A stretch of 64,000 nucleotides of DNA from Acidimicrobiia bacterium (GCA_041751055.1 JBGSYD010000047.1:71875-135874), one strand, 5' to 3'; positions 4,337-24,861 are shown, numbered from the stretch's first letter. Notes: a model not told the origin generated them from the sequence alone. Program-made: numbers and translations.

Positions 4337-5335
4337 TCATCCTTCGATGCCAAGCAGTCGGGCTGCGTTCCCGCCACGTATGAGGTCTACGTCATCGGCC
4401 GTCAGATTTTCAACGGAGTTGATTAGACCGAGAGGGTCTTCGTCGCCCATGTCGTACGGGTAATCGGTTCCCAGCAGTACGTGGTCAGATCCGTATTTCT
4501 TGATGAGATAACCCAGTTGGTCCGGCTCGAAGACCATCGTGTCGAAGAAGAACTCCTTGAGGTATTCACTTGGGGGGCGGGGAAGCCCGTACCGGACGTC
4601 CTCTCGAGCGTGGTAGGCGTGATCAAACCGTCCTGAATAGGCCGGAAGAAAGCCACCGCCGTGTGCAAACACGATCTTCAATCCCGGGTGGCGTTCCATC
4701 ACGCCGTCGAAGATGAGTCGGCCCGCGCACAACGTCTCTTCGAGGGGATGACCGATCGTGTTGTAGAAGTAGTGATCGGTGAACCTGCCGGGATCTGTGA
4801 ATCCCATGGGATGGATGAAGACCACCATCTCCAATTCCTCGACGCTCTCCCAAAAAGGCTCAAAGCGTGGATTGGAGATCTCTTCGCCCAGGATGTGGGT
4901 GCTGATCTCGATTCCACGGAACCCGAGCTCGTGGTGGCATCTTTTCAGTTCAACGATTGCACTTTCGGAATCCTGGAGGGGCACCGCACCCAGGCCTACA
5001 AAACGCGCCGGATCAGCGGCGACCAGTTCCGCGAGGTCGTCGTTTATCGTCTGAAATGCACTCACACCCAATTCACCGCCGGCCCAGTAGAACTGGTGAT
5101 AGGGCGAAATGCTCAACGCTTGAACGTCGACTCCCATGGCGTCCATGTCCGCGAGGCGGACGTCGATCGATTCCATCTTGGGGCGAAGACCGGCGAGCTG
5201 CCGACGATTTACCTCCCTGGTCAGCTCGCTTCCTATTTGCAGTGGGGCACGACCCTGGCGATCAGCCTCAGGTTGAACCATGGCGGCGGCCTGTCCACAC
5301 TCGCGATGGCAATGGATATCGATTACTCGGGTCAT
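4337..5335 (-). CDS. amidohydrolase-2 family metal-dependent hydrolase/decarboxylase (ACMSD-like)
   Basis: N-terminal IDIHCH metal-binding motif, internal FIHPMG and AHGGG motifs, and a C-terminal LGTDYP motif. This is the TIM-barrel amidohydrolase_2 pattern. Confidence 0.7.
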   Translation of the reverse strand: MTRVIDIHCHRECGQAAAMVQPEADRQGRAPLQIGSELTREVNRRQLAGLRPKMESIDVRLADMDAMGVDVQALSISPYHQFYWAGGELGVSAFQTINDDLAELVAADPARFVGLGAVPLQDSESAIVELKRCHHELGFRGIEISTHILGEEISNPRFEPFWESVEELEMVVFIHPMGFTDPGRFTDHYFYNTIGHPLEETLCAGRLIFDGVMERHPGLKIVFAHGGGFLPAYSGRFDHAYHAREDVRYGLPRPPSEYLKEFFFDTMVFEPDQLGYLIKKYGSDHVLLGTDYPYDMGDEDPLGLINSVENLTADDVDLIRGGNAARLLGIEG

Positions 5336-10664: not shown

Positions 10665-11192
10665 ATGGACTCCAGTTCGAGACGTTTGGTGCAAGCCGAC
10701 GAACACGCGACAGCGCCAGGCGTTGGCGACACCGCTCCGCAATTCGAGTTGCGCCGTAGCTTCGAACAGGACGTCAGTCTGAGCGATCTCACTGCACGAG
10801 GATCTGTTCTTCTTGTTTTTTACGTTTTCGACTTTGGACATGTGTGAGGTCACGAGTTGTCCCAGTTGGGACAGATGACGGATCAGGTGCGCAAGTTGGG
10901 AGCCGAACCGGTGGCGATCGCCGTTACCGCCACATTTTCGCAGCTGGCTTTTGCCGAGGAGTTGGGAGTCGACTTCCCGATGTTGTCGGACTGGGATGGA
11001 ACGACTGCTAATGCATATGGAGTCCAGTACCGGGAGTGGAAAGGGCACTCCGGTCTGGCCAAGCGATCTGTGTTCGTGATCGACCGCGGCGGCGTGATTC
11101 GATACCGCTGGTCAACCGATGACGCGCTTATCGAACCCGACCTCCATGAAGCAGTTGCTGTTGTCGATTCATTGTCGTCTGATGCCAGCTAG
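10665..11192 (+). CDS. AhpE-like 1-Cys peroxiredoxin with an in-frame TGA (10845-10847) at the peroxidatic-Cys position; candidate selenoprotein, alternatively a nonsense pseudogene
   Basis: ORFs 10590-10847 and 10857-11192 are in the same frame and are separated only by the TGA. Read through, they give ...VLLVFYVFDFGHV-U-GHELSQL...FPMLSDWDGTTANAYGV...VFVIDRGGVIRYRW. This aligns along its length to AhpE/Bcp peroxiredoxins, with the TGA exactly where the peroxidatic Cys sits (compare GICQGELDQL in AhpE). The start is chosen at ATG 10665. Confidence 0.55.
10857..10874 (+). other. small stem-loop (7-bp stem including a G-U pair, loop AGUU) 9 nt downstream of the in-frame UGA; SECIS-like candidate
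   Basis: ttgtccc-agtt-gggacag is self-complementary. Its position immediately 3' of the UGA is where bacterial SECIS hairpins are found. It is short, so this is weak evidence on its own. Confidence 0.3.
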
Positions 11193-11213: not shown

Positions 11214-12560
11214 ATGGCCGATCTAGCGGTACGTGGAGGGATTATTGTCTCGGCCCGACAGAGCTTTCAAGCCAATCTCCTCGTGTCAGACGGCCGGATC
11301 GCAGACGTCGGCTCCGGACTACAAGATGCATCTGAGACCATCGACGCTACGGGTCTACTGGTGTTGCCGGGACTGGTCGATACCCATGTTCACCTCATGG
11401 ATCCAGGTGACACCAGTCGTGAGGATTTCCCGACCGGAACCGCTGCTGCGGCTGCGGCCGGAGTCACCACTCTCATCGAGCACACCCATGCCCGACCGAT
11501 TCGTAGCGCTTCCGACCTCGCTGAGAAGACGTCCTACCTGAAAGGGCGTTCTCATGTCGACTACGGCCTGGCGGCACACGTATGGCCAGATCGGATTGAT
11601 GGCCTAGCGGAATTGTGGTCGGCGGGAGTTTCGTTCTTCAAGATCTTCACGTGTTCCACTCATGGGGTGCCCGGACTTGGTGCGACCGTCCTGGAACGAG
11701 CACTCACCGCCATCGCCGGGTTTGACGGGAGTTGTCTCGTCCACTGTGAGGACGACACCATGACTGGGTCGGCAGAATCGTCGCTCAGGTCTGCCGGACG
11801 GTCGGACAACGGCGTCCTCGTCGAATGGCGTTCGCGTGTCGCCGAACAAATGGCCGTCGACCAGGTCTGCGAGCTCGCCGTCAAAACCGGGGTTCGAGGC
11901 ACTATCGCCCATGTGAGCAATCCCGCTGTCGCCGCCATTGTCGATTCCGCACGGAGCCGGGGAGCCGACATCGTCGCGGAGACGTGCCCTCAGTATTTTG
12001 GCCTTCGCGAAGATGAGGTCCTTGTGGAAGGTCCGTTGCGCAAGTTCACGCCACCGGCCCGAGCTCGCTCTGACGAAGAGGAGGACGAGATGTGGGCGTT
12101 GCTTCGCTCCGGGGCGTTCAACCACATTTCCACTGATCACGCCCCGTCGACACGCGCCCAGAAAGACGTAGGAATCTGGGAAGCTCCATTTGGCCTTCCT
12201 GGCCTCGATACCACCGGCCCGTTTCTGATCGACGCCGTTTCCCGCGGAAAGATCAGTTTCCCCGACATAGTTCGGGTGTACTCGGAGGCTCCCGCTCGAA
12301 GGTACGGGCTGTACCCGAGAAAGGGTCAGCTCTCTGTCGGATCCGACGCCGACTTCGTGCTGATCGACCCGGCCCGAAAATGGCGAGTCGGTGACGGAGA
12401 CATAATCTCGAAAGCTGGCTGGTCTCCGTTCGCCGAGAAGGTCTTCACCGGATCAGTCGTGGCGACCTATCTACGTGGTCGCCTGGTCGCTCAAAACCGC
12501 CAACCGACGAATGCGGGATCGGGTGAGTTCATCCCCGGGCCGGGCGCGCAGGCCCTCTGA
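11214..12560 (+). CDS. cyclic amidohydrolase (dihydropyrimidinase / hydantoinase / allantoinase-like)
   Basis: LPGLVDTHVHL metal-binding motif, the later HCED motif, and the overall length and pattern of the D-hydantoinase/dihydroorotase superfamily. Confidence 0.75.
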   Translation: MADLAVRGGIIVSARQSFQANLLVSDGRIADVGSGLQDASETIDATGLLVLPGLVDTHVHLMDPGDTSREDFPTGTAAAAAAGVTTLIEHTHARPIRSASDLAEKTSYLKGRSHVDYGLAAHVWPDRIDGLAELWSAGVSFFKIFTCSTHGVPGLGATVLERALTAIAGFDGSCLVHCEDDTMTGSAESSLRSAGRSDNGVLVEWRSRVAEQMAVDQVCELAVKTGVRGTIAHVSNPAVAAIVDSARSRGADIVAETCPQYFGLREDEVLVEGPLRKFTPPARARSDEEEDEMWALLRSGAFNHISTDHAPSTRAQKDVGIWEAPFGLPGLDTTGPFLIDAVSRGKISFPDIVRVYSEAPARRYGLYPRKGQLSVGSDADFVLIDPARKWRVGDGDIISKAGWSPFAEKVFTGSVVATYLRGRLVAQNRQPTNAGSGEFIPGPGAQAL

Positions 12561-12581
12561 TATATCATATATGATCCGCAG

Positions 12582-13604
12582 GTGCCCTCAGATACGGACG
12601 ACCCTTTGACCAACAACAATCAAATTCGCCTGGCTTCTGTCGGACTCGGATGGTGGGGATCGGTACTGGCTGACGGAGCCAAAGCGGCCGGGGCAGAGAT
12701 AGTTGGTGGATTCGCCCGTCGCAACGAGTCGAGGAGCACTTTTCAGTCGACTCATGGCGGTCGCCAGTTTGAGTCATATGAAGAGGTTCTGCACGCCTCG
12801 GATGTCGACGGCATTTTGCTCGCGACGCCCCACACGGCTCATGCCGACCAGATCGTGGCCGCCGCCAACGCGGGTAAGCACGTTTTTGTCGAAAAGCCAT
12901 TTGCGCTTTCGGTCGATTCGGCCAAGCGGGCGCTCGCCTCGTCTGAAGAGGCCGGGACCGTTTTACAGGTCGGGCACAACAAGCGCCGACAGCCTGCAAA
13001 CAGGCGTCTCAAGTCCATGATCGACAATGGTGACCTGGGCACGGTCACCATGATCGAAACCCATCAGTCGGTGCCCAAGGCTCTGGGTTTCGAGGCTGGC
13101 TACTGGAGGGCCAATGATACCGAGAGCCCCCTCGGGGGTATGACCAGCCTCGGTGTTCACATGATCGATACGATGACGTATCTTCTAGGGCCCATCGATC
13201 GGGTTTTTGCGTTCAGCAAGAGAATTCTCGACAGTCCACCGATTGATCACGCAACGACTTTGGTCTTCGAGTTCGCCTCCGGCCCTTTGGGATATCTGGG
13301 AACGTCATTTGTGGTCCCTCGGACTACCTCCGTCACCGTCCGGGGCACCGGCGGGACCGCCGTCAATGATCTCGATGGAGCCAGGTTCTACACCCAAGGG
13401 CCGGGTGAACCGGCGCCGACCGAACAGTCCGTCGAGGTGATCGATACGGTCGCTGATCAACTGGTTGAATTCGTGCTGTCGATCAAAGGGGAGTCTTCCC
13501 CGCAAACTGGTGGACACGAAGGAGTGGAAGTGATTGCGGTCCTCGAGGCGGCCATGGCTTCTCACCGGTCCGGTCTGCCCCAGCCAGTCGCAGAGTTCAG
13601 ATAA
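12582..13604 (+). CDS. Gfo/Idh/MocA family oxidoreductase
   Basis: N-terminal Rossmann segment (IRLASVGLGWWG) and EKP motif (HVFVEKPFA). Confidence 0.75.
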   Translation: MPSDTDDPLTNNNQIRLASVGLGWWGSVLADGAKAAGAEIVGGFARRNESRSTFQSTHGGRQFESYEEVLHASDVDGILLATPHTAHADQIVAAANAGKHVFVEKPFALSVDSAKRALASSEEAGTVLQVGHNKRRQPANRRLKSMIDNGDLGTVTMIETHQSVPKALGFEAGYWRANDTESPLGGMTSLGVHMIDTMTYLLGPIDRVFAFSKRILDSPPIDHATTLVFEFASGPLGYLGTSFVVPRTTSVTVRGTGGTAVNDLDGARFYTQGPGEPAPTEQSVEVIDTVADQLVEFVLSIKGESSPQTGGHEGVEVIAVLEAAMASHRSGLPQPVAEFR

Positions 13605-13606
13605 CC

Positions 13607-14908
13607 GTGCACTCGTTCTTGAAGGAACCGAAGAAGACGGCCCAGGCTGCAACGGACGAGATTCGAGAGACGGTCAGCCAGATTATCTCAGACGTCGAAC
13701 GCCGCGGAACCGAAGCAGTGCGTGAGTACTCCGAGCGATTCGACGGATGGAGCCCCAAGTCGTTCCGGGTCTCCAGCGATGAGATCGAGCGGATTACCGC
13801 AGGCTTGGATCCCGAGGTAGTGAGCCATGCCAGCTTCACCCTGGATCAAGTACGCAACTTCGCCCAACTGCAACTAGAGAGCATGCACGAGTTTGAGGAG
13901 GAAACCTTACCGGGCGTTCTTCTGGGCCAGAAACACATCCCGGTCAACTCCGTTGGCGCGTATTCGCCAGGTGGTTTATATCCGTTGATTGCCTCGGCGA
14001 TCATGACGGTGGCCACGGCCAAAACCGCGGGAGTCCCCAGGGTTGTTGCCGCAGCACCTCCGCGAGATGCAGCGGGGATCCACCCGCCTCAACTCTGGGC
14101 AATGGTTGCGTCGGGAGCGGATGAGATATTTTGCGTCGGTGGTGTTCAGGCGCTTGCTGGTATGGCCTTCGGCATGGAGGACTCCAAGCCCGTGGACATG
14201 ATTGTCGGAGCGGGGAACGCGTACGTCGCAGAAGCGAAAAGACAGCTCTTTGGCCGTGTGGGCATCGACTTGCTTGCCGGGCCGACCGAAATCATGGTCA
14301 TCGCCGACGAAACCGCCAACCCGGCCGTAGTGGCAGCCGACCTCCTCGGACAGGCAGAACATGGTCCGACATCGCCGGCGATACTGGTAACGACTTCTGA
14401 ATCGGTTGCCGCTGAGACACAACGTGAGGTCCTGCGCTGGCTCGAAACATGGCCGACCGCCGCGATCGCGGCCGTGGCGTGGCAAGATTATGGAACCGTG
14501 ATCCTCTGCGACAGCGACTCGGAGATGGTGGCGGTGTCCGATGAGTTTGCACCCGAGCATCTCCAGATCCACACTGCTGATCCGGATTGGTTCGCTGAAC
14601 GGCTCCGCAATTACGGAACAATTTTTATCGGGACGCACGCCACTGTCACCTATTCAGACAAGGCAATCGGGACCAACCACGTTCTCCCCACCGAGCGAGC
14701 GGCCCGTTATACGGGTGGCCTATGGGTCGGAAAGTTCCTAAAGACTGTGACGACGCAACGCGTCACGGCTCAAGGGTCGGCACTGGTCGCAGAGCATGCC
14801 GCCTCGGTTGCGAATGCTGAGTTGATGTTCGGGCACGCCATCAGTGCCTTGCTTCGTCGCAATCCGGAATATTTCTGGGACGCCCTATCAGTGGGCGAGG
14901 ACGAATGA
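13607..14908 (+). CDS. histidinol-dehydrogenase-family (HisD paralog) 4-electron alcohol/aldehyde dehydrogenase
   Basis: 433 aa with HisD-like motifs (GPTEIMVIADETANP, AEHGPTSPA, IGTNHVLPT). No other histidine-biosynthesis genes are nearby. Confidence 0.75.
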   Translation: MHSFLKEPKKTAQAATDEIRETVSQIISDVERRGTEAVREYSERFDGWSPKSFRVSSDEIERITAGLDPEVVSHASFTLDQVRNFAQLQLESMHEFEEETLPGVLLGQKHIPVNSVGAYSPGGLYPLIASAIMTVATAKTAGVPRVVAAAPPRDAAGIHPPQLWAMVASGADEIFCVGGVQALAGMAFGMEDSKPVDMIVGAGNAYVAEAKRQLFGRVGIDLLAGPTEIMVIADETANPAVVAADLLGQAEHGPTSPAILVTTSESVAAETQREVLRWLETWPTAAIAAVAWQDYGTVILCDSDSEMVAVSDEFAPEHLQIHTADPDWFAERLRNYGTIFIGTHATVTYSDKAIGTNHVLPTERAARYTGGLWVGKFLKTVTTQRVTAQGSALVAEHAASVANAELMFGHAISALLRRNPEYFWDALSVGEDE

Positions 14909-15678
14909 GCTCCCCGGTGACCCTCATCACCGGAGCCAGCCAAGGAATCGGGCGGGACCTGGCGACAACCTTCGCGCGTGCGGGCCACTCCCTGGCTCTT
15001 GCGGCACGTAACGAATCAAACCTGGCCGAGACGATGCGGGCAGCACTGGAGTTCGGCGGCGACGTCGAAGTGATCGTCACCGACATAACCCAGCCCGAAC
15101 AAGTGGAGGCAATGGGGGAGAAGGCCCTCGAACGGTTTGGACACGTCGACAATGTGGTCAACAACAGCGGGATTGGTGGGCCTTCGGGCCTCCTCTGGGA
15201 GCTCGACATCGATGACTGGAGGCAGACTTTTGCCGTAAATGTGGAAGGTGTTTTCCTAGTGTCGCGAGCCATCCTCCCCCATATGGTGAAGCGTGGCGAA
15301 GGTTCCGTGATAAACATCGGCTCTATCACAGGCAAGAGGCCGCTGTGGGGCCGATCGCCGTACGCCGCCAGCAAAGCCGCTCTTATCGGGTTGACCCGCA
15401 CGCTGGCCGTCGAGGCAGGTGCCTATGGGGTCCGGGTAAACCTCATTTCGCCAGGATTTGTGGAAGGGGCTCGCCTTGACTGGGTGATCCGGACCCAGGC
15501 GGAGGGGAGAGGGGTGAGCGAGGATCAGGTCCGCCGCGAATTCGAAGCCGAAGCGGCCTTGAACCGACTCACCCAGCCTGTTGACGTGGCCCGCGCTGCT
15601 CTGTTCCTGGCGTCCGATGGATCGCTGGGGATCTCAGGTGCTGATGTGAATGTCAATTCCGGCGCAGTGATGTATTAA
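14905..15678 (+). CDS. SDR family oxidoreductase
   Basis: TGASQGIG cofactor motif, NNSG, and the YxxxK catalytic motif (YAASKAA). The start overlaps the upstream stop in ATGA form. Confidence 0.8.
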   Translation: MSSPVTLITGASQGIGRDLATTFARAGHSLALAARNESNLAETMRAALEFGGDVEVIVTDITQPEQVEAMGEKALERFGHVDNVVNNSGIGGPSGLLWELDIDDWRQTFAVNVEGVFLVSRAILPHMVKRGEGSVINIGSITGKRPLWGRSPYAASKAALIGLTRTLAVEAGAYGVRVNLISPGFVEGARLDWVIRTQAEGRGVSEDQVRREFEAEAALNRLTQPVDVARAALFLASDGSLGISGADVNVNSGAVMY

Positions 15679-15687
15679 AGGAGGACA

Positions 15688-16374
15688 ATGCCGCGGCTCA
15701 TCGATCTGTCTCAGGACATCTATCAGGGAATGATGGTCTATCCGGGCCATCTCAAGACCGTCGTGTTCCAACACGCCACACATAGGGAAACGGCTGCACG
15801 TTTCGAAGGGGGCTTCTCGTTCCAGACCCTTGGATTCATGCTCAACGACAACGGCCCAACCCATGTTGATTCGTTCAGCCATCTCGATCCAGATTCGACA
15901 GCTCAAACAATCGACCAAATGGCGCTCGACCTCTTTTACGGGCCTGCCATTTGCCTCGATGTCTCGTCTGTTGCCCCGAAGACCGACATCACCAATCAGG
16001 ATCTAGATGCGGCCCTCACCGCCTCCGGGCTCGACCTGGTGCCTGGTGACATGCTCTTCCTGTATACGGCGACCTTTGACCGACACAAGGGGACAGATGA
16101 GTATTTGACCGAATTCCCCGGGCTCGGCGAGAGCGGCGCCGAATGGATAGTGGACAAAGGGGTGAAGACGTTCGGTGTCGACTCACCAACTCCAGACAAC
16201 CCGACGTCGCGATCCTACCCATGCCACATGATGTGTCGTCGGGAGCACATAACGCATTACGAGAATCTCGTGCTGACCGATGTGGTCAATTCAAGGTTCA
16301 CTTTTGTGGGTTTTCCGTTGAAGGTCCTGGGTGCCCATGGCGGACCTACACGTGCGGTGGCGATCGTTGAATGA
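15688..16374 (+). CDS. cyclase-family metal-dependent hydrolase (kynurenine formamidase / isatin hydrolase-like)
   Basis: HxGTHxDxxxH-type motif (NDNGPTHVDSFSH) and a length of about 230 aa. Confidence 0.7.
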   Translation: MPRLIDLSQDIYQGMMVYPGHLKTVVFQHATHRETAARFEGGFSFQTLGFMLNDNGPTHVDSFSHLDPDSTAQTIDQMALDLFYGPAICLDVSSVAPKTDITNQDLDAALTASGLDLVPGDMLFLYTATFDRHKGTDEYLTEFPGLGESGAEWIVDKGVKTFGVDSPTPDNPTSRSYPCHMMCRREHITHYENLVLTDVVNSRFTFVGFPLKVLGAHGGPTRAVAIVE

Positions 16375-16826
16375 GACGGCTGAAACTCGACGAAGCCGAC
16401 ACGATCATCGATGCCGCGCTGGCCAAAGGCCGGGAAATGGGCCTGGGAAAGCTCTCGGTGGTCGTGCTCGACGATGGCGGGCACCAAATTGCGATGAAAC
16501 GTGAGGATGGCTCGGAATTCATGCGGCCCATGATCGCCAACGCCAAAGCTTGGGGCGCCTTGGGGATGGGGCTTCCGAGTCGTTTGCTCTCCGAGCGTGC
16601 CCAAAAGCTTCCTGTTTTCGTCGCTGCCCTGTCCGACATCTCTCAAGGCCGGCTGGTGGCGCTTCCGGGGGGAGTCATAGTCCGCGATGGGGAGGGGCAG
16701 ATCCTGGGCGCCGTTGGTGTGTCGGGCGATGTCTCGGAGCCAGACGAAGTCTGCGCAGTGGCCGGAATCGAAGCCGCCGGGCTGAAACCCGACTTTGGTC
16801 AAAACCCCGAATGGCGTCGCCCATGA
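16371..16826 (+). CDS. GlcG/HbpS-like (DUF336) protein
   Basis: 151 aa. The GG(V/I)...G..G.IGAVGVSG pattern is typical of DUF336/GlcG. The start overlaps the upstream stop in ATGA form. Confidence 0.6.
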   Translation: MRRLKLDEADTIIDAALAKGREMGLGKLSVVVLDDGGHQIAMKREDGSEFMRPMIANAKAWGALGMGLPSRLLSERAQKLPVFVAALSDISQGRLVALPGGVIVRDGEGQILGAVGVSGDVSEPDEVCAVAGIEAAGLKPDFGQNPEWRRP

Positions 16827-16930
16827 GGATCAGACATGAGTTTGGGGCCACGTCGCTGACCCATCGTATATGATGCATGATCGTTGACCGGGTCACATGC
16901 CGGCTGACGAAAACCAAAAAGGGAGACAAT

Positions 16931-17971
16931 ATGGCCAGAAAGGCCTTTCGCTACACCGCCTTATTTTCGATCCTGGCGCTTGTGGCCGCCGCTTGTGGCG
17001 GCGATAACTCGGGAGAAGACGGAGGCACGACGGACCCTGATGCACTCAAGGTGATCAGATTCGCCTTCGCACCCGACCCGGTCTGGGACTATCTGGTCGA
17101 TTCGGGAATCCGTGAGGAAATGGAGACTGCGGCCAATATCGCCATCCTCGACTCAGCGACCTGGAATGAGGTCGGTGTTTATGCCGGGGGCAACGCCGAT
17201 ATCATGTCGGTTGGTGACTTCGAGGTGCCAACGATCGAGCAGGAGTTCGGAATTCCGAGCGTCGTTTTCGGCAAGTACAACATCGATCGCAGCATCATCG
17301 TCGCCTCACCGGAGCATCCGGAGTACACAACTCTGGCGGACTGCGCCGGCGGCACGGTTGCTGTATGGGACACGTTGTCGTCAACCACCATCTGGGGAGT
17401 GCTGGCAAATGAATTGCACGGCCTCGACTTCCGTGTCGATGGTGGAGACTTCGAGCTTGTCGTAGTGGATATCACCAACACAGCCACCCAAGCAGCCAAC
17501 GGCGACACTGATTGCGCGATCGTATTGCCCGACTTCTCCATTCCGGTCCTCATGAATAACGAGGTCAACGTCCTCTACGACGGCAGGACTTCAGCGGACA
17601 TGTATGCAGAGGTTGTCGGCAAGCCCGGCCATGAAGGCCCCATGATCAATATCTTCCTCGCCCGCGAGGATTGGTATGACGACCATCCTGAAGAGGTAGC
17701 CTTCTTCCTCGCCCTCTGGGATCGGGGAGTCAAGGAATGGGCGGCCAATCGTGACGAGATCATCGCCAGCTATCCGCAACATTTCGCGGCCGAAGGTGAC
17801 GAACAAGTTGCGTGGATGCAGGACTACCTCAGCCAACACGACTGGTTCGCTAAGGGGATCTACCTCACCGACGAGTGGGTCGAGTCGGAATCTGAGCTGT
17901 TCGGCCTGTTGGAGGACGCCGGTTTGTCTGACACATCGGAGCCACCGAGGTTCGACGTAGTCTCTCCCTGA
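16931..17971 (+). CDS. ABC transporter substrate-binding lipoprotein (NitT/TauT-type inferred from partner genes)
   Basis: Start at MARKAFRY after a GGGAG ribosome-binding site. Signal peptide with lipobox LVAAAC. The gene is followed by two permeases and an SsuB/TauB-like ATPase. Confidence 0.6.
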   Translation: MARKAFRYTALFSILALVAAACGGDNSGEDGGTTDPDALKVIRFAFAPDPVWDYLVDSGIREEMETAANIAILDSATWNEVGVYAGGNADIMSVGDFEVPTIEQEFGIPSVVFGKYNIDRSIIVASPEHPEYTTLADCAGGTVAVWDTLSSTTIWGVLANELHGLDFRVDGGDFELVVVDITNTATQAANGDTDCAIVLPDFSIPVLMNNEVNVLYDGRTSADMYAEVVGKPGHEGPMINIFLAREDWYDDHPEEVAFFLALWDRGVKEWAANRDEIIASYPQHFAAEGDEQVAWMQDYLSQHDWFAKGIYLTDEWVESESELFGLLEDAGLSDTSEPPRFDVVSP

Positions 17972-18778
17972 GTGACGCAGAACGCGATTGAAACCGAGTC
18001 CCCTCGGTCCGCCCGCCGTAACTGGCGGCGGACCGGGGGACTTGTCCTGGGTTGGGGCGGCTTCATACTTTTGTGGGCCTTCGTGTCTGCCGTCATCCTC
18101 GACCAGTTCACTTTGCCTGGCCCCCTCAAGGTGGGCAAAGCAATGTGGGCCATCGTGGTCCAAGGTGAGTTCTTCGATGATTTTGCCGCCAGCATCACAA
18201 AGACCTTCATGGGATTCGGACTGGGCGTGGCTTTCGGTGTCCCTGTCGGCTATCTCATGGGTAGGAGTCGCTATTGGAAGGCTTTTTTCCACGACGGCGT
18301 AGTTGGCGCGGGAAGTGTCCCCGGCATCACATATGCAGTGTTGGCATTGGTGGTAGTCGGGACGGGTTACCTCGGGCCGGTCCTGGCGGTGGGGTTGATT
18401 TCGATGCCCTTCATCGCATTGAGCGTTGCCGAAGGGGTCGAAGGCGTCGATCAGAATCTCGTGCGGATGGCCACCGCATTCCGGAGGAACGATCGCCAGA
18501 TTGCTCGGGAGATCATGTTGCCGTCGATCATGCCCTTCGTCTTCGCAGGGGTCCGATTGGCCTTCGCAATTGCATGGAAGGTGGAGGCCTTGACCGAGGT
18601 CTTCGGGTCGTCAAACGGTGTGGGCTTTCAAATACGTTTCGCATTTCAGTCCTTCAGCATCACGAACGTTCTGGCCTGGACTCTTCTGTTTATCCTTTTC
18701 ATGCTCCTCATCGAGCGCGCCCTCGCTCTGGTTGAGCGAAGGGTTTTCGTGTGGCGGACCTGGGAGCAAACCGCATGA
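17972..18778 (+). CDS. ABC transporter permease (NitT/TauT family)
   Basis: GTG start immediately after the upstream stop. Multi-pass membrane protein with an EAA-like loop (AFRRNDRQIAREIMLP). Confidence 0.75.
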   Translation: MTQNAIETESPRSARRNWRRTGGLVLGWGGFILLWAFVSAVILDQFTLPGPLKVGKAMWAIVVQGEFFDDFAASITKTFMGFGLGVAFGVPVGYLMGRSRYWKAFFHDGVVGAGSVPGITYAVLALVVVGTGYLGPVLAVGLISMPFIALSVAEGVEGVDQNLVRMATAFRRNDRQIAREIMLPSIMPFVFAGVRLAFAIAWKVEALTEVFGSSNGVGFQIRFAFQSFSITNVLAWTLLFILFMLLIERALALVERRVFVWRTWEQTA

Positions 18779-19656
18779 CAGCGACAGTTGTTACAGAACC
18801 TCCACAGCGCACTAAGTGGCGGCGGATTTTGACGTCTGATACCGCTGCCCGAATCACTTTCTATATAGCGATCGTCGCCGGCTGGCAACTCCTTGCCTGG
18901 CAAGTCGACCGAATGCCAGCCCCGTGGGAGACCGCTGATTTCCTCTACCGGGAGCTGACAGCGGGTTCACACGGTGGTGTGCTTACCGGTGAGTTCTGGG
19001 AACATTTCCTTGCTACCTTGCAGCGGTTCATCGCCGGATTGGCAGTTGGCTTCGTGATCGGTGTCATCCTCGGGATAGCCATTGGTTCTTTCAACTTCGT
19101 ACGCAGTCTGCTCAACGACGTGATGCTGGTGTTCCTGGCCCTCCCGGCGGTTATCTGGGCCTTTCTCACTGTCATGTGGTTCGGCCTGGGATGGGAGGCT
19201 CCGGTCTACACGGTGATTCTGGCGACCATCCCGTTTGTGGCGGTAAATGTTGCTCAAGGCGTGCGTGCGGTGTCCCCAGATCTACATCGGATGTCTGATG
19301 CATTTGATGTTCCCCGACAGCGGCGACTACGCCATCTGCTCCTCCCGTCGATTACCGGGTACCTGTTCACGGGGTTGCGGTTTGCGGTGATCATCGGGTG
19401 GAACGCCGTTTTGTTGGCAGAGTGGTTTGGAGCATCGAACGGAGTGGGATGGCGATCCCGCTACTGGTATGACGCGGCGAGATATCGGGGATTTCTCGGT
19501 TGGGTCCTGGTCTTCATTGCCTTCATTTTCGTGTTGGACGGTTTAGTGATGCGACCCCTACAGCGACGGGCGTTTCGCTGGAGAGATGGCGGCGCAGAGG
19601 GTGACGGCGATCGTCCCGAGTCCGCAATCGAAAAGATGGCAGCAACAGGTGTTTAG
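18775..19656 (+). CDS. ABC transporter permease (second membrane subunit)
   Basis: The ATG at 18775 overlaps the upstream TGA in ATGA form. Hydrophobic, with an EAA-like loop (AFDVPRQRRLRHLLLP). Confidence 0.75.
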   Translation: MTATVVTEPPQRTKWRRILTSDTAARITFYIAIVAGWQLLAWQVDRMPAPWETADFLYRELTAGSHGGVLTGEFWEHFLATLQRFIAGLAVGFVIGVILGIAIGSFNFVRSLLNDVMLVFLALPAVIWAFLTVMWFGLGWEAPVYTVILATIPFVAVNVAQGVRAVSPDLHRMSDAFDVPRQRRLRHLLLPSITGYLFTGLRFAVIIGWNAVLLAEWFGASNGVGWRSRYWYDAARYRGFLGWVLVFIAFIFVLDGLVMRPLQRRAFRWRDGGAEGDGDRPESAIEKMAATGV

Positions 19657-19672
19657 ACATGGAGGCTTTTAG

Positions 19673-20434
19673 ATGGCGACTCTGAGTGTGAAGGAGCTAA
19701 CCAAGACGTTCCCCGCGGTCAGCGGGGGTGGGCAACCGGTTCGCGCCATCGGGGATGTCTCATTCGAAATGTCCGGACAGGTGTTCGTGTCACTGGTAGG
19801 GCCATCCGGTTGTGGCAAGAGCACGCTGCTCAACATCGTCTCCGGTGTCGACACCCCCTCAACAGGGTCGGTGACCGTCACACAGGATGGGAAGCCTGCC
19901 CGCCTTGGATATGTGTTTCAGGATCCGCGCCTCCTTCCATGGAGGACCGTGATGCAAAACATGATGTATGTGAGCGATCTGCAGGAGGAAGAGTCGAGGC
20001 TCAATGCTCGCCGCTACCTGGACATGGTCGGATTGGCCCACGCCGAGGACATGTTCCCGGGACAGCTGTCTGGCGGCATGCAACAACGTGTTGGAATTGC
20101 TCGGGCCTTTTCGGTAGGTCCCGATTTGTTACTCATGGATGAGCCTTTCAGCCATCTCGACGCCATCACCGCGCGTTCGCTCCGGGATCAACTACAGGAG
20201 ATGTGGAATGAGACAAAGAAAACCGTCTTGTTCGTGACTCACGACGTCATGGAAGCAGTTCAACTCTCCAACAGGATCATCACCCTGGCCCACGGTGGTG
20301 TTGTGTTCGACGACACCGCGATCGACTTGCCGTTCCCGCGTAAGGCGTCCGATCCCGAATTCGCCCAGCACCAGGCAACGCTCCTTGGCCGTTTTGAGGA
20401 TATGGAGGCAGAACGCACCGCCGGGGGCGGCTAG
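19673..20434 (+). CDS. ABC transporter ATP-binding protein (SsuB/TauB/NrtD-like)
   Basis: Walker A GPSGCGKST, signature LSGGMQQRV, Walker B LLLMDEP. Confidence 0.85.
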   Translation: MATLSVKELTKTFPAVSGGGQPVRAIGDVSFEMSGQVFVSLVGPSGCGKSTLLNIVSGVDTPSTGSVTVTQDGKPARLGYVFQDPRLLPWRTVMQNMMYVSDLQEEESRLNARRYLDMVGLAHAEDMFPGQLSGGMQQRVGIARAFSVGPDLLLMDEPFSHLDAITARSLRDQLQEMWNETKKTVLFVTHDVMEAVQLSNRIITLAHGGVVFDDTAIDLPFPRKASDPEFAQHQATLLGRFEDMEAERTAGGG

Positions 20435-21312
20435 CGGTCCAGGTTCGCTCGCCCTTCGAGTAGGCGGGCAAGTGCTGCCGCATCCAGCTCGCCAAGTCCT
20501 CTCTCCACTGCGTCCCGGTATAGCGGGAGGGACGCGTCGAGAAGCGGCGTGGGCACACCGAGAGAGCGTGCGTGGTTGCCGATTATGTCGATGTCCTTGA
20601 GAAACATCTGTAGTTTCGCAGCTGCCGGATAGTCGTCATCGACGATCATCGGGCCCCGAATCTCGAAGATCTTCGAACTCCCGACGCCCGCAGAGATCAC
20701 CTGGAGGATCTGCTCAGGAGCGAGCCCGCTCTTCATGCCGAGGGTGAATGCTTCCGCCGTGGCAAGGTTGTGTATCGACACCAGCAGGTTTGCAACGAAC
20801 TTCATTTTCGAGCCATTCCCGAAGGCCCCAAGATCAAAGGTAGCTTTCGCGATCGCATCGAAGATCGGCCGCGCTTTGGAAAGAGCAGCCGGCGCGCCGC
20901 TGGCATAAACCACTATCTCAGCCGATTCGGCCTGGAGTCCGGTACCGCTCACCGGCGCATCGAGCAAGTCGGTACCACCCTGCGCCAGTGACTCGAGGGC
21001 CTCCACTTTCGTGTCCAAAGGGAGCGTGCCCATTTCGATGACAACAAGCCCCGGGCGAGAAGCTCCGAGAAGGCCCCCTTCACCACTGAGCATGTCCGAG
21101 AAGGCAGCGACAGAGGCCAGAGCGACAAGGACGACATCTGATCCGTCTCCTACCGCTCCTGCCGACTGGACCGGGTGACCACCGAGGGCTTCGAGCTGAT
21201 CGAGCCGGGACTGCTCGATATCTGTCCCGATCACTTCAAATCCCGCATTAATCAGATTTCGGGCGTATGCGAGTCCCATGATCCCGAGTCCAATCACACC
21301 GACATGACTCAT
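20431..21312 (-). CDS. 3-hydroxyisobutyrate dehydrogenase-family NAD(P)-dependent oxidoreductase
   Basis: Start placed at MSHVGVIGLGIMG (Rossmann). The longer ORF to 21360 would overlap the upstream gene. HIBADH-like pattern. Confidence 0.7.
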   Translation of the reverse strand: MSHVGVIGLGIMGLAYARNLINAGFEVIGTDIEQSRLDQLEALGGHPVQSAGAVGDGSDVVLVALASVAAFSDMLSGEGGLLGASRPGLVVIEMGTLPLDTKVEALESLAQGGTDLLDAPVSGTGLQAESAEIVVYASGAPAALSKARPIFDAIAKATFDLGAFGNGSKMKFVANLLVSIHNLATAEAFTLGMKSGLAPEQILQVISAGVGSSKIFEIRGPMIVDDDYPAAAKLQMFLKDIDIIGNHARSLGVPTPLLDASLPLYRDAVERGLGELDAAALARLLEGRANLDR

Positions 21313-21352
21313 GGCGGTCTCTCCGTGGGCCGGGATCGACGACGACGGGGCC

Positions 21353-22141
21353 TCACCCATCGAGAAAGCCTCTGAGAACCCGCACCAGCGCCTCAGGCTG
21401 TTCTATCTGCGGGCAATGCCCGCATTCTGCGATCAACTCGAATTGGGCGTCGGGAATCGAGGAGGCGGCAGCCCTACCCATTTCCGGCGGTGTCGTCTGG
21501 TCGATTTCCCCGGCGATAATCATCGTCTGCTTGCTTATCTCGGACAGCTGTTCGCTCAGGTCGAGTGTGGCAAGAGCCAGGCACGCAGCCGAAAAGGCGC
21601 CGGGGTCGATCATTTCGAGAACCAACCTGCGCTCGCCGAGGGCCGCTGGGTGAGCAGCCTGGAACTGCGCGGGGAAGATCCTTTTGAGTGCCACATCGGC
21701 TACGGCGGCCATTCCGCCCGACATGGCCAGGTGGCTCATGTTGGTGAACGCAACACGCCGTTCAGAGCTAAACCCGGCGCCGCAGTTGGAGGCGATGAGC
21801 GATCCAAAAGATTCGCCGTGCTCGATGGCAAGTTTCAATGCCACAAACGCCCCTAGCCCGTTCCCGAGAACGCTCGTCAGTGGGCTGCATCCGACGGCAC
21901 CCATTGCCGTGGCGACGAAATCGGCAAGATCGGTGATCGATACCGACCCTCTGATAAGCGGAGTAGAGGCACCGAAACCAGGCAGGTACACGCGGTGCAC
22001 GGTGTGATCATTCTCCAGCGACCCGACAACACCGTCAAAGGCTTCAGGCCCGGTCAATAGGGAGTGGATGATGACGAGCTCGGGCCCCGCTCCCGATGTG
22101 TCCACCTGGACTGCTCCCGTCTCGATTTCGAGCACAGTCAC
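21353..22141 (-). CDS. alpha/beta hydrolase fold protein
   Basis: 262 aa with HSLL oxyanion region, nucleophile elbow GNGLGAF, and a C-terminal catalytic His (ECGHCPQ). Confidence 0.7.
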   Translation of the reverse strand: MTVLEIETGAVQVDTSGAGPELVIIHSLLTGPEAFDGVVGSLENDHTVHRVYLPGFGASTPLIRGSVSITDLADFVATAMGAVGCSPLTSVLGNGLGAFVALKLAIEHGESFGSLIASNCGAGFSSERRVAFTNMSHLAMSGGMAAVADVALKRIFPAQFQAAHPAALGERRLVLEMIDPGAFSAACLALATLDLSEQLSEISKQTMIIAGEIDQTTPPEMGRAAASSIPDAQFELIAECGHCPQIEQPEALVRVLRGFLDG

Positions 22142-22157
22142 ATCAGGGGCGGACCGT

Positions 22158-23663
22158 CTAATTGAGGCGCTGATTGTCGCCCCCGTACCAGTCGACGTCC
22201 TCCGTGGCGGTGCGAATGGTCACGGAGCGCACATGGGTGAAATCGTGGAAAGACTCCCATCCACCTTCCCGACCCGACCCGCTGTCACGCACGCCTCCCC
22301 ATGGTGATGCCGGGTCCAGACGGTGATGGTCGTTGACCCACACGATGCCGTGGCTTAGCCGGTTGGCGACGCGGTGAGCCCTGGCCACGTCGTTAGTCCA
22401 GATCGAGGACCCGAGCCCATAGCGTGAGTCATTTGCCTGGCTGACGGCGTCGTCTTCATCCGTGAAAGGGATCACAACTGCCACGGGGCCAAAGATCTCT
22501 TCCCGGGCGCAACGCATGAGGTTGCTCACGTTTCTCAAGACTGTCGGCTCGACGAAGTACCCAGGGGGTAGAGACTCTCCGGTTGCCGCCTGCCCTCCGC
22601 AGGCCACCACGGCACCTTCCTCCTTGCCTAGTGCGATGTAGTCGAGAATTCGCTGTTGGGCTTTCTCGCTGACGACCGGGCCGAGTTGCGTCTCCGGTAA
22701 TGCGGGGTCACCGATTTGGATCCGTGAAGCCTGCTTCACCAATTCATCCACGAACTCGTCATATATCGTTTCCTGAACCAGGATCCGGCTGCCACAGATG
22801 CATGTTTGCCCGGCGGCTATGAACGCACCGAAGGCTGCTCCGCGAGCTGAGGTAAGGACGTCCTGGTCATCAAAAACGATCACTGGCGTTTTGCCGCCCA
22901 GCTCCACCGTGACCTTGGCAAAGCGGGTCGCGGCCGCAATGGAGACCTGTCTTCCTGGTTCGGTGCCCCCTGTGAATATCACTTTCCCCACATCAGGGTG
23001 TTCGCTGAGGCGTTTGCCGGCTGTGACCCCTATCCCGGGTACCACGTTCAGCACCCCCGGAGGGATCCCGGCCTCCAGCGCCATATCACCGAGCATCAAA
23101 CATGTGAATGGGGTGAGCTCTGAGGGCTTCAGAACAACGCTGTTTCCTGTGGCCAGGGCCGGTGCGAGACTTTTTGAGGAGATCATCAACGGATGGTTGA
23201 ACGAGCTGAGGATCCCAACAACGCCTATCGGGAAGCGTGATGTGTAGGAGTGATAAGGGCCGGGCATCGGGATCACGCTGTTGCGATCGGCCAGCAGCAA
23301 CGATGCGTTGTAGCGGTACCAATCCCCGAGACGTGTTACCTGGGCTCTGGTTTCAGTTATAGGTCGACCATTGTTCTTAGTTTCGAGGCGAAACAGGTCT
23401 TCGAGGTGGGCATCGATCAGATCAGCGATTGCGTGGAGGGTCGAAGATCGGTCTCGGATCGGTTTTTCTGACCACGTGCCTCTGTCGAAGGCATTTTTGG
23501 CGGCGGCCACCGCTGCGTCGATGTCTTGTTCGGTCGCGAGCGCGCTTCTTCCAAAGACTTGCCCGTCGGTGGGGTTGACGATGTCGGCCATCTCCCCGGT
23601 CGACGACATCACTTCTTTGCCATCGATGATCAGCCCGTGTTCGATCAAACCTGATTCACTCAT
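22158..23663 (-). CDS. NAD(P)-dependent aldehyde dehydrogenase
   Basis: Catalytic Glu (ELGGKTP) and Cys (GQTCICGSRIL) motifs, and the NAD motif FTGGTEPG. The start is chosen at MSESGLIEHG, giving about 500 aa. The ORF upstream to 23942 is taken as non-coding extension. Confidence 0.85.
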   Translation of the reverse strand: MSESGLIEHGLIIDGKEVMSSTGEMADIVNPTDGQVFGRSALATEQDIDAAVAAAKNAFDRGTWSEKPIRDRSSTLHAIADLIDAHLEDLFRLETKNNGRPITETRAQVTRLGDWYRYNASLLLADRNSVIPMPGPYHSYTSRFPIGVVGILSSFNHPLMISSKSLAPALATGNSVVLKPSELTPFTCLMLGDMALEAGIPPGVLNVVPGIGVTAGKRLSEHPDVGKVIFTGGTEPGRQVSIAAATRFAKVTVELGGKTPVIVFDDQDVLTSARGAAFGAFIAAGQTCICGSRILVQETIYDEFVDELVKQASRIQIGDPALPETQLGPVVSEKAQQRILDYIALGKEEGAVVACGGQAATGESLPPGYFVEPTVLRNVSNLMRCAREEIFGPVAVVIPFTDEDDAVSQANDSRYGLGSSIWTNDVARAHRVANRLSHGIVWVNDHHRLDPASPWGGVRDSGSGREGGWESFHDFTHVRSVTIRTATEDVDWYGGDNQRLN

Positions 23664-23865
23664 GTCTTTCACTACCGCCTTCGTGATTTGTGAGAATCTT
23701 AAGCTCGATTTCACCATGGCTTCGTCGACGGGTTGACTGCCCGCATCGCAATAGAGCCCGGGCTGCCCGTTTATCGGTTCCGGGATGTCCATCTGAGTGA
23801 CCCCGACAGCTACCCCATGAAGCTGTGGATTAGAAGCGAGCCGTCGGGTCGCTACATTCACCTCT

Positions 23866-24861
23866 ATGGAAGAAGAACGAATCGCTCTGTTTGTCGATTT
23901 TGAGAACCTTGCAATCGGGGCACGGGAAGCTTTGGGGGGCATGGAGTTCGATTTCGAGCCAATTGCAAACGCCCTCGCCGAACGAGGCCGGGTCGTCGCC
24001 CGGAAGGCCTACGCGGATTGGACGATGTTCGACAATGCCCGGCAGAACATGACGCGGAGCCACGTCGAGCTGATAGAAATCCCACAGCGGATGGGAGCAA
24101 CCCGAAAGAACGCTGCCGACATCAAGATGGCCGTTGACGCCATCGAATTGGCCTTCGAACGCGACTATGTGACCACGTTCGTGATCTGTACGGGCGATAG
24201 CGACTTCACACCTCTCGTCCACAAGCTGCGGGAGCTGAACAAGAAGGTGATTGGCGTGGGCGTGAAGGCGTCGACGTCCGCACTGCTGCCCCCGGCGTGT
24301 GATGAATTCCTCTTTTACGAGAACCTGGAGGGTATCGATCCCCGACCGGCGGAAACCTCCTCCAGCGATTCAACAGCGCCTCCCCAACTCGAGGCCCTCA
24401 TCACGACCACCCTGGCAGGACTCGGCCGCACGAGCGGGGGTGAGGTTCTCGCTTCCTCCCTGAAGCGGGCCCTCTTGCGGAAGGACTCGACTTTCTCCGA
24501 GACCGATCACGGATATCGGGCCTTTGGTGAGCTGCTCCGGGACCTGGAGAGCCAGGGCATCGTTGAACTTTCCGAGGGACCGGGCCGTGGAGACCCAATG
24601 GTTCAATTCCCCTCCAAGGGGAGCGGAGAGGAGGCCGCCTTCGCCTTGCTGGCCGGCGTTGTCTCAGAACTTTCGGGTAAGAACGGTCAGGTCCTTCTCT
24701 CCGGGCTGAAGAACCAGCTGCGGAAGAAAGACCCGGAGTTCTCGGAGAAGAAATTCGGCTATGGCGGATTTCTCCAATTCTGCAAAGGTGCTGAGCGTCG
24801 CGGGCTCATCGAGCTGAATTGGGATCAAGGAGCCGAGGATTACACGGTGGCGCCGGGGTGA
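23866..24861 (+). CDS. NYN (LabA-like) nuclease-domain protein with two C-terminal OST-HTH/LOTUS domains
   Basis: N-terminal IALFVDFENL...TFVICTGDSDFTPLVHKLRE is the NYN/LabA pattern. It is followed by two repeats of the form ...LLRK(K)D..FSE...GY..F..L.......G..EL, which is OST-HTH-like. Confidence 0.65.
   Translation: MEEERIALFVDFENLAIGAREALGGMEFDFEPIANALAERGRVVARKAYADWTMFDNARQNMTRSHVELIEIPQRMGATRKNAADIKMAVDAIELAFERDYVTTFVICTGDSDFTPLVHKLRELNKKVIGVGVKASTSALLPPACDEFLFYENLEGIDPRPAETSSSDSTAPPQLEALITTTLAGLGRTSGGEVLASSLKRALLRKDSTFSETDHGYRAFGELLRDLESQGIVELSEGPGRGDPMVQFPSKGSGEEAAFALLAGVVSELSGKNGQVLLSGLKNQLRKKDPEFSEKKFGYGGFLQFCKGAERRGLIELNWDQGAEDYTVAPG

Follow-up and report, generated by a model that had tools for sequence, protein, structure and literature searches.

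The window analysed here, 64,000 nucleotides of DNA from an Acidimicrobiia bacterium (GCA_041751055.1 JBGSYD010000047.1:71875-135874), carries on its plus strand a ten-gene operon (11214-20434) in which a zinc- and NAD-dependent dehydrogenase of the HisD family is combined with a cyclic amidohydrolase, a Gfo/Idh/MocA oxidoreductase, a short-chain dehydrogenase/reductase (SDR), a metal hydrolase of the cyclase family, a GlcG-like protein and an ATP-binding cassette (ABC) importer. We propose, with a probability of about 0.55, that this operon forms a catabolic system together with a flavin monooxygenase encoded upstream and three convergent genes on its downstream side. The substrate would be a small, imported, non-sulfonate compound in which a hydroxyl or amino group neighbours a primary alcohol; an N-heterocycle, a cyclic amide or a precursor of these is the most probable. 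We favour an N-heterocycle or cyclic amide because the flavoenzyme, an Amidohydro_2 protein, RidA, molybdenum (Mo) hydroxylases, the cyclase, the amidohydrolase and a ring-fission-like aldehyde dehydrogenase (ALDH) recur in related loci, and because the window holds no sulfolyase genes.

The original prediction, made from the same DNA, had placed ten co-directional, tightly packed genes in this interval. All ten open reading frames (ORFs) were found there, and every domain it had named was recovered in the same order with Pfam and NCBIfam models. It had also recognised no described pathway with this gene combination, and in fact full-text literature searches returned no paper on the combination or on this subclade of HisD proteins.

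The HisD-family dehydrogenase

The dehydrogenase matches PF00815 with 449 bits and TIGR00069 with 441 bits (cut-off 244), a result that does not discriminate because the profile also captures HpsN, the 3-dehydrogenase of (R)-2,3-dihydroxypropane-1-sulfonate (DHPS). Its best solved structures are in fact two HpsN proteins, from C. pinatubonensis (CpHpsN, 8V35, 404 bits) and R. pomeroyi (RpHpsN, 8WWE, 367 bits), and structures of histidinol dehydrogenase score at most 255 bits; the window protein shares 48% of its residues with CpHpsN and 36% with E. coli HisD (1KAE). When the protein is aligned with both, the zinc ligands (Gln, His, Asp and a second His) and the catalytic Glu-His pair are conserved, and in CpHpsN numbering Gln248, His251, Glu318, His319, Asp352, Lys353, His359 and His411 are all kept. 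It thus has in common with HpsN the PF00815 fold, the zinc ligands, the catalytic Glu-His-Asp and Lys353, and with HisD the family, the metal and catalytic residues and a Pro-Leu pair at motif positions 125-126; the two-step, four-electron NAD chemistry would be expected here as well.

The residues that set specificity are different. In the CpHpsN structure the sulfonate coordinates the zinc and is bound by Lys353 and by His126, itself a zinc-binding residue, and the motif G-R-Y-A/S-H, closed by His126, separates HpsN from HisD, which has G-S-A-P-L; HpsN does not oxidise histidinol (PMC11382572). An ungapped alignment to 8V35 places G-L-Y-P-L at this site in the window protein, with Leu at the positions of both Arg123 and His126. 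The zinc-binding Asp is followed by Lys (D-K), in contrast to the D-Y/F of 88/88 canonical sequences compared, and Tyr124 and Thr226 stand where HisD has Ala and Ser. By its residues the protein qualifies neither as a canonical HisD nor, on the published criterion, as an HpsN. As the specificity residues of both enzymes are missing, the names used in the databases, histidinol dehydrogenase at NCBI and sulfopropanediol 3-dehydrogenase at JGI, are likely both wrong.

A comparison of 154 family members from genomes, metagenomes and plasmids, arranged in a neighbour-joining distance tree without bootstrap, gives the same picture. The canonical HisD group has D-Y/F and a G-x-A-x-L/Y motif and is 33-42% identical to the window protein; all other members compared form a D-K superclade. 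Inside this superclade ten HpsN sequences with His126 are monophyletic (45-48% identity to the window protein), and their loci have the TRAP-transporter-like, SDR and medium-chain dehydrogenase/reductase (MDR) neighbours of the known hps layout. The window protein branches apart from them, within an Acidimicrobiia lineage of the superclade (64-82% identity) whose closest branch has G-L-Y-P-L without exception, and its close homologues carry Acidimicrobiia names. Thus, of the two placements the original prediction had put forward for checking, with HpsN or in another non-HisD clade, the second was borne out and the first was not.

It is barely credible that we are dealing with the organism's true histidinol dehydrogenase, placed in the operon by chance. 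The TIGR00069 score far above cut-off, the name NCBI gives to relatives and the HisD-like Pro-Leu would fit such a reading, but the protein is closer to HpsN, which is inactive on histidinol, than to E. coli HisD, it has D-K, Tyr124 and Thr226 in place of the canonical residues, and its translation is coupled to that of an SDR within an operon that also encodes a transporter. Domain scans of about 60 ORFs of the window (59% GC) found no his genes, near the operon or elsewhere in these 64 kb. With a better match to HpsN than to any HisD structure, without D-Y/F or G-x-A, and in a catabolic context free of his genes, the gene is probably a catabolic paralog, as had been suggested.

We consider it rather improbable that the operon serves the catabolism of a C3-sulfonate, DHPS or cysteinolate, with a functional HpsN, the SDR as an HpsO-type epimerising dehydrogenase and a sulfonate importer. 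Much in the window invites this reading: HpsN is the best solved match, many close relatives bear the JGI name, Lys353 is kept, an SDR gene adjoins as hpsO does in the hpsNOP cluster, an uptake system is linked to it, and the transporter family takes in SsuABC and TauABC, with SsuA and TauA among the Foldseek matches of the binding protein. However, the missing His126 is the very residue that distinguishes HpsN (PMC11382572), Arg123 is lost with it, and the protein lies outside the His126-bearing clade. Neighbouring hpsO (SDR) and hpsP (MDR, PF08240+PF00107) genes served as a further criterion for HpsN (PMC11382572); here the SDR is adjacent and an HpsP-type MDR is absent from the operon and its flanks. 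No SuyAB, Xsc, CuyA, SlcD or sulfite-exporter gene occurs in the 64 kb, and no gene of a sulfolyase route (SuyAB, Xsc+ComDE, CuyA) was seen among the ORFs scanned. In place of such partners stand a cyclase, a hydantoinase-like amidohydrolase, a Gfo protein and GlcG, and neither the cyclase, the amidohydrolase, the flavoenzyme nor the Mo hydroxylases have a part in DHPS catabolism. Finally, a published survey found HpsN hosts in Proteobacteria and Desulfobacteria only, whereas the host of the window is an actinobacterium. By analogy, the cluster resembles an hps-type module of importer, SDR and four-electron dehydrogenase joined to hydrolases of the N-heterocycle type.

The distinction matters beyond this operon, since the HisD-like protein is widespread, with at least 120 clusters (90% identity level) at 70% identity or more to the window protein. 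Metagenome and metatranscriptome counts of DHPS catabolism that use homology scores, marine sulfonate surveys included, may wrongly take in these Acidimicrobiia genes, because the HpsN-defining residue is absent from proteins that JGI names as such. For enzymology, the lineage would open an unexplored specificity class among the Zn/NAD four-electron alcohol dehydrogenases, a family for which, to our knowledge, only two substrate types have been established so far, histidinol and DHPS/cysteinolate. A defined operon with a soluble binding protein and few enzymes also offers a tractable route to a compound degraded by an abundant, poorly cultured class of actinobacteria.

D-K paralogs with 50-57% identity are also found on plasmids of Salmonella, Klebsiella, Geobacillus, Deinococcus, Sinorhizobium, Rhizobium and others. 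These (L166-L168 among them) are annotated 'hisD / histidine biosynthetic process' yet adjoin LacI regulators and sugar ABC or MFS transporters, and probably represent another uncharacterised specificity group.

Conservation and partner enzymes

The proteins of the window were compared by tblastn with 28 loci in which the HisD-like protein is at least 69% identical, some of these loci being near-duplicates of each other. The SDR gene lies directly downstream of the HisD-like gene in 24 of the 26 evaluable loci, and the cyclase gene comes next after it in 16, being absent from five fully evaluable ones. A NitT/TauT importer stands within 10 kb in nine loci. The amidohydrolase recurs in six (L003, L004, L086-L088, L177), the Gfo gene also in six, directly upstream of the HisD-like gene (L003, L084/85, L175-L177), and the GlcG gene in five (L004, L086, L085/L175, L177). 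Four loci (L003, L005, L089, L177) have the convergent ALDH and alpha/beta hydrolase genes, the ALDH orthologues being 77-79% identical, and in two of the four (L003 and L177) a gene of the 3-hydroxyisobutyrate dehydrogenase (3-HIBDH) family is present too.

One of these loci, L177 (HisD 77%), has the order amidohydrolase-RidA-Gfo-HisD-SDR-cyclase-GlcG, together with an inverted transporter, the 3-HIBDH/hydrolase/ALDH trio and an interrupted peroxiredoxin; all thirteen genes and the selenocysteine (Sec) peroxiredoxin described below are there, in an arrangement that differs from the window's. L003 has the same gene families in yet another order, and in L174 an Amidohydro_2-HisD-SDR-cyclase series faces a GntR gene and an SBP-permease-permease-ATPase set (SBP, substrate-binding protein). 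RidA is a recurrent neighbour in related loci, and four-subunit Mo hydroxylases of the xanthine dehydrogenase (XDH) type flank the core in L176 and in three loci whose HisD-like motif is G-A-Y-P-L (L007/L009/L094). The genes keep together as a functionally linked set, rearranged about a HisD-SDR-cyclase core, and the functional unit extends past 11214-20434 to the upstream peroxiredoxin and the three convergent genes at 20431-23942. Conservation as a unit, on which the original prediction had staked its case, therefore holds in substance, as a shuffled set with a constant core; a fixed ten-gene block is not what is conserved.

That the ten genes are no single pathway, and that a HisD-SDR-cyclase module has merely come to lie beside an unrelated transporter and hydrolases in an often-rearranged catabolic island, is in our view distinctly improbable. 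Such a reading draws on the near-constancy of HisD-SDR(-cyclase) alone, with the amidohydrolase, Gfo and GlcG each in a minority of loci, on an ABC system that is missing or inverted in several loci and follows a 105-nt gap in the window, and on an SBP family that also occurs without a HisD-like gene (L173). The same thirteen gene families, however, come together in L003 and L177 at 53-85% identity in other orders and orientations, and regrouping of this kind is the usual signature of functional coupling. Stop/start overlaps moreover tie the HisD-like gene to the SDR gene and the cyclase gene to glcG.

On the Haloarcula sp. JP-L23 plasmid CP050017 (L165, 7900-18700) an amidohydrolase_2 gene, a cyclase-hisD pair, 2Fe-2S and XDH-family Mo subunits, SDRs and a FAD monooxygenase stand together. 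The Haloarcula counterparts are 36-42% identical to those of the window (HisD paralog 42%, with G-R-H-P-L and D-K; monooxygenase 36%), and therefore the association of HisD, cyclase, SDR and monooxygenase spans domains of life. Among the neighbourhoods of the nearest plasmid cyclases, those of Paracoccus, Halomarina, Natrinema, Cupriavidus and Aureibacter showed no link to HisD, the Haloarcula plasmid alone having one.

The amidohydrolase scores about equally against the allantoinase, dihydroorotase, hydantoinase and ErtD models of NCBIfam, all below cut-off: the best equivalog is allantoinase (287 bits, cut-off 358), and the AllB, PyrC, D-hydantoinase and ErtD cut-offs are unmet. Its closest solved match is the L-hydantoinase 1GKR (203 bits), and its binuclear site is complete, with HxH (DTHVH), Lys (FK), His (HCE), His (HVS) and Asp (DH). 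These residues mark it as a cyclic amidohydrolase with a binuclear metal site, akin to L-hydantoinase, allantoinase and dihydroorotase and of no defined equivalog. The SDR found only generic FabG-like matches in the PDB.

The cyclase reaches 95 bits against PF04199 (gathering score 23), the family of kynurenine formamidase, isatin hydrolase and HpoH, and 64 bits against the arylformamidase equivalog TIGR03035, the cut-off of which is 223. Its metal motif HxGTHxDxPxH reads NGPTHVDSFSH (residues 53-65), so that the first His is Asn and the other ligands, the distal His and Glu included, are conserved. The change is invariant in the aligned Acidimicrobiia orthologues of at least 72% identity, and the His is retained in the more distant homologues of Haloarcula, Halomarina, Natrinema and L014 (about 40% identity or less), which suggests an altered metal site in the Acidimicrobiia subfamily.

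The flavin monooxygenase matches 2VOU, a 2,6-dihydroxypyridine 3-hydroxylase, with E = 4e-64 and scores above the cut-off of PRK07236; in L003, L005, L089, L010 and L095 an orthologue of it (56-68% identity) is encoded no more than 1-4 kb from the HisD-like gene. The small protein next to it in the window (413-790, plus strand) has a weak cupin match (E = 6e-4), and ORFs of 128-135 aa likewise adjoin the monooxygenase in L003 and L173.

The importer is, from a structural model of its binding protein, of the NitT/TauT class with an NMT1/THI5-like class II SBP fold, and its class and its SBP-permease-permease-ATPase order are those originally proposed. By sequence the SBP matches Pfam NMT1 weakly (E = 3e-5) and nothing in the PDB; the permeases match SaoP/SsuC/TauC/NtrB best and the ATPase NtrCD, all below equivalog cut-offs. 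In Foldseek the AlphaFold model of the SBP (pLDDT 86) finds as top matches Thi5 with pyridoxal phosphate (PLP), PqqT with pyrroloquinoline quinone (PQQ), a thiamin-bound SBP, ThiY, SsuA and TauA, with TM-scores of 0.6-0.76. The nearest structures bind PLP, PQQ, thiamin or formylaminopyrimidine, and since SsuA and TauA score nearly as well, the fold confirms the class and does not single out a ligand. In its SBP-permease-ATPase architecture, SBP fold and permease and ATPase subfamilies the system is like the SsuABC, TauABC, ThiXYZ and PqqT importers; it differs from them in an SBP that is 11-18% identical to its structural neighbours, in fitting no equivalog and in having two separate permease genes.

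A further cluster with this kind of importer was seen in L173 (10001-18400), where an SBP 59% identical to the window's, permeases and an ATPase accompany an ALDH, a dihydroxypyridine-hydroxylase-like monooxygenase, a 135-aa protein of no known family, RidA, Amidohydro_2 and an arginase-family protein. HisD and the cyclase are absent from this cluster, and thus a transporter-monooxygenase module can occur independently of the HisD core.

The proposed catabolic route

To account for this gene set we envision the following route, in which the succession of reactions, the assignment of enzymes to them and the kind of substrate are all inferred. Uptake would fall to the importer, with its lipoprotein SBP, two permeases and ATPase. 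Secondary hydroxyls would then be oxidised or epimerised by the Gfo/Idh/MocA enzyme and the SDR, as they are by HpsO and HpsP on DHPS, and the HisD-family enzyme would turn the primary alcohol into a carboxylate in an NAD-dependent, zinc-assisted four-electron oxidation. In this step the substrate may chelate the zinc as histidinol and DHPS do, the His319/Glu318 mechanism being established for HisD and HpsN. Ring C-N bonds could be opened by the cyclase-family hydrolase and the hydantoinase-like amidohydrolase. The decarboxylase-like Amidohydro_2 protein, the dihydroxypyridine-hydroxylase-like flavoenzyme and RidA would contribute decarboxylation, hydroxylation and lower steps, and the enol-lactonase-like hydrolase, the semialdehyde dehydrogenase and the beta-hydroxyacid dehydrogenase would feed the products to central metabolism.

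The lower pathways of pyridines are the closest precedents for the hydrolytic part. HpoH of Rhodococcus PY11, a PF04199 cyclase, was assigned to the hydrolytic opening of 2,3,6-trihydroxypyridine; the same role has merely been hypothesised for the 'polyketide cyclase' of the nicotine plasmid pAO1, the gene of which adjoins that of dihydroxypyridine hydroxylase; and the kpi cluster for 4-hydroxypyridine combines a flavin monooxygenase with an Amidohydro_1 protein and an alpha/beta hydrolase. The window has in common with these systems a hydroxylase homologue (2VOU), a PF04199 hydrolase, an Amidohydro_1 protein and an alpha/beta hydrolase, and some related loci add Mo hydroxylases. It differs from them in the altered metal motif and distant sequence of its cyclase and in lacking an omega-amidase, and none of them has a HisD-family enzyme, a Gfo protein or a NitT/TauT importer.

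Several observations weigh against the route. Its preference for N-heterocycles is built on resemblance at the level of families, and no enzyme of the cluster reaches a substrate-defining NCBIfam equivalog cut-off, TIGR00069, which the HisD-like protein does reach, also capturing HpsN. Lys353, a sulfonate contact in HpsN, is present, and vitamin-binding and sulfonate-binding proteins are almost equal in their Foldseek scores. The cyclase has lost the first metal-ligand His and is only about 31% identical to the cyclase on a plasmid of Arthrobacter sp. NicSoilE8, and none of the ORFs scanned in the window encodes an omega-amidase (CN_hydrolase domain). The flavin monooxygenase is 10 kb away from the operon in this DNA, across genes that show no synteny elsewhere. 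Distant members of the D-K superclade, moreover, stand beside LacI regulators and sugar ABC transporters.

This last point, together with others, could speak for a polyol, acid-sugar or lactone pathway without any N-heterocycle, which we regard as unlikely. On this view a polyhydroxy compound would be oxidised by the Gfo, SDR and HisD-like enzymes, yielding a dicarboxylic or uronic-type acid; the 'amidohydrolases' would be lactonases, and the downstream genes would process the hydroxy-acid semialdehydes that result. In fact, Gfo/Idh/MocA enzymes usually use sugars and inositols, GlcG is known from glycolate operons, the 3-HIBDH-like gene is nearest to L-threonate dehydrogenase and the alpha/beta hydrolase to enol-lactonase, and HisD-superclade members at 52-57% identity adjoin LacI and sugar ABC/MFS transporters on Deinococcus, Salmonella and Geobacillus plasmids and in several metagenome-assembled genomes. 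The transporter, however, is of the NitT/TauT class and not a CUT1/CUT2 sugar system, the amidohydrolase, with L-hydantoinase and allantoinase as its nearest relatives, has the complete site of a cyclic amidase, and the recurrent RidA, the dihydroxypyridine-hydroxylase homologue and the XDH-type hydroxylases suit N-rings better.

We thus keep to an N-heterocycle or cyclic amide, in line with the original prediction, which had likewise preferred it to a sulfonate: the His126 and Arg of HpsN are absent, the window has no sulfolyase, and the partners seen in relatives fit N-rings. A more specific version, which we hold only tentatively and think doubtful, is that a hydroxymethyl- or diol-substituted N-heteroaromatic is degraded by a complete pathway, so far undescribed, that this cluster encodes and in which a new HpsN/HisD-type specificity class makes a ring carboxylate, decarboxylation, hydroxylation and hydrolytic opening follow, and the Sec-peroxiredoxin guards against peroxides. 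Candidate substrates would then be compounds of the vitamin type, for instance pyridoxine/4-pyridoxate, hydroxymethylpyrimidine, 5-hydroxymethyluracil or a pterin with a polyol side chain.

Two known routes were tried and set aside. For the degradation of vitamin B6 (pyridoxine) each step has a plausible enzyme, but the flavin monooxygenase and the alpha/beta hydrolase have no PDB match (E <= 1e-5) to the 2-methyl-3-hydroxypyridine-5-carboxylate (MHPC) oxygenase and alpha-(N-acetylaminomethylene)succinate (AAMS) amidohydrolase of M. loti; we keep it as an unproven candidate. The kynurenine/2-amino-3-carboxymuconate pathway, hinted at by the KynB-like cyclase and the ACMSD-like protein, lacks tryptophan dioxygenase, kynureninase and 3-hydroxyanthranilate dioxygenase; further, the flavoenzyme is not like kynurenine monooxygenase, and the Amidohydro_2 proteins near HisD elsewhere are only about 40% identical to the window copy.

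Gene boundaries and neighbouring genes

The gaps between the operon's genes are, in order, 21, 2, -4 (ATGA), 9, -4, 50, 0, -28 and 16 nt in the ORF listing. Of the tight spacing first claimed, 0-20 nt or ATGA overlaps, the overlaps were found at two junctions, HisD-like/SDR and cyclase/GlcG, and the full range, -28 to 50 nt, goes beyond 0-20. The SBP gene most likely starts at ATG 16932 rather than 16877, because a ribosome-binding site (AAGGGAG) precedes this codon, a lipoprotein signal (LVAAAC) follows it and homologues are 344-354 aa long. The gap between glcG and the SBP gene then becomes the only sizeable one in the operon, with the only room for an internal promoter. Scans for consensus promoters and terminators gave nothing above shuffle expectation. 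Rfam models matched nothing in the 64 kb, nor in the leader when this was scanned sensitively, and hence give no riboswitch hint to the ligand; a megablast search of the operon against plasmids likewise returned nothing.

Table 1. Features of the operon and its surroundings, in window coordinates
Feature	Position	Strand	Basis or remark
Class A flavin monooxygenase, 2,6-dihydroxypyridine 3-hydroxylase homologue	803..1984	+	PDB 2VOU
Amidohydro_2 (ACMSD-like) decarboxylase or hydrolase	4337..5335	-	204 bits to human ACMSD
CoA module: NDP-forming acyl-CoA synthetase, family III CoA-transferase, CitE/RipC-like C-C lyase	6291-10575	-	
Peroxiredoxin (AhpC/TSA) with in-frame TGA at 10845-10847	10665..11192	+	ends 21 nt before the operon's first gene
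Candidate bacterial selenocysteine insertion sequence (SECIS) hairpin	10857..10874	+	7-bp stem UUGUCCC/GGGACAG, loop AGUU, 10 nt after UGA
Cyclic amidohydrolase (Amidohydro_1)	11214..12560	+	Pfam, NCBIfam, PDB 1GKR alignment
Gfo/Idh/MocA NAD(P) oxidoreductase	12582..13604	+	Pfam, NCBIfam
HisD-family Zn/NAD dehydrogenase (G-L-Y-P-L, Thr226, D-K)	13607..14908	+	profiles, alignment, tree
Classical SDR, translationally coupled to the HisD-like gene	14905..15678	+	Pfam, ATGA overlap
PF04199 'cyclase' metal hydrolase, variant metal motif	15688..16374	+	Pfam, alignment
GlcG/HbpS-like (DUF336) protein	16371..16826	+	Pfam
Lipoprotein SBP, NMT1/THI5-like	16932..17971 (mechanical ORF from 16877)	+	Pfam, ribosome-binding site, signal, Foldseek
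ABC permease 1 (BPD_transp_1)	17972..18778	+	Pfam, NCBIfam
ABC permease 2 (BPD_transp_1)	18751..19656	+	Pfam, NCBIfam; true start perhaps slightly downstream
ABC ATPase, NtrCD/SaoA/TauB-like	19673..20434	+	Pfam, NCBIfam
Beta-hydroxyacid dehydrogenase, 3-HIBDH family	20431..21360	-	convergent, 4-nt overlap with the operon
Alpha/beta hydrolase, closest to 3-oxoadipate enol-lactonase and RutD	21353..22141	-	syntenic in L003, L005, L089, L177
ALDH, closest to ring-fission semialdehyde dehydrogenase HpaE	22158..23942	-	orthologues in relatives
NYN ribonuclease + OST-HTH/LOTUS domain protein	23866-24861	+	overlapped by mechanical ALDH ORF

The peroxiredoxin gene just upstream of the operon has its TGA at the codon of the peroxidatic Cys (VFDFGHV-U-GHELSQL), and a TGA stands at the same codon in nine related loci (protein identity 60-77%). 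The hairpin that follows in the window has a minimum free energy of -15.4 kcal/mol (z = -1.9), which is weak by itself, but a hairpin is predicted about 10 nt past the TGA in seven of the nine loci, mostly as CUGUCCC-AGUU-GGGACAG, with synonymous codon positions kept. The interrupted gene is syntenic with the cluster in L003, L004, L086-L088, L177 and L008/L093. From these sequence features the peroxiredoxin is probably a selenoprotein that travels with the cluster; no sel genes were found in the window.

Among the convergent genes, the one of the 3-HIBDH family, syntenic in L003 and L177, has L-threonate dehydrogenase and tartronate semialdehyde reductase as its best matches. The true start of the ALDH gene is probably near 23650, since its relatives are 496-501 aa long, and the N-terminal 95 or so codons of the mechanically called ORF, which run into the NYN ribonuclease gene, are probably untranslated.

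The Amidohydro_2 gene of the window appears to be more weakly linked to the cluster: genes of the family lie near the HisD-like gene in L003, L005, L089, L174 and L177, and with the low identity given above the recurrence is at family level only. The CoA genes at 6291-10575, a module of the C5-dicarboxylate type with a succinate-glutarate/mesaconate-like transferase that is divergent from the operon, were considered as members of the cluster and rejected, as they show no synteny with it in other loci. Genes such as those for DivIVA, UPF0182 and mycothiol S-transferase show the remainder of the window to be ordinary actinobacterial chromosome. Beyond the convergent genes, at 24819-26959 on the plus strand, a DAO-type FAD oxidoreductase gene is followed by an overlapping gene of the ornithine cyclodeaminase/mu-crystallin family, a pair that may act on cyclic imino acids.

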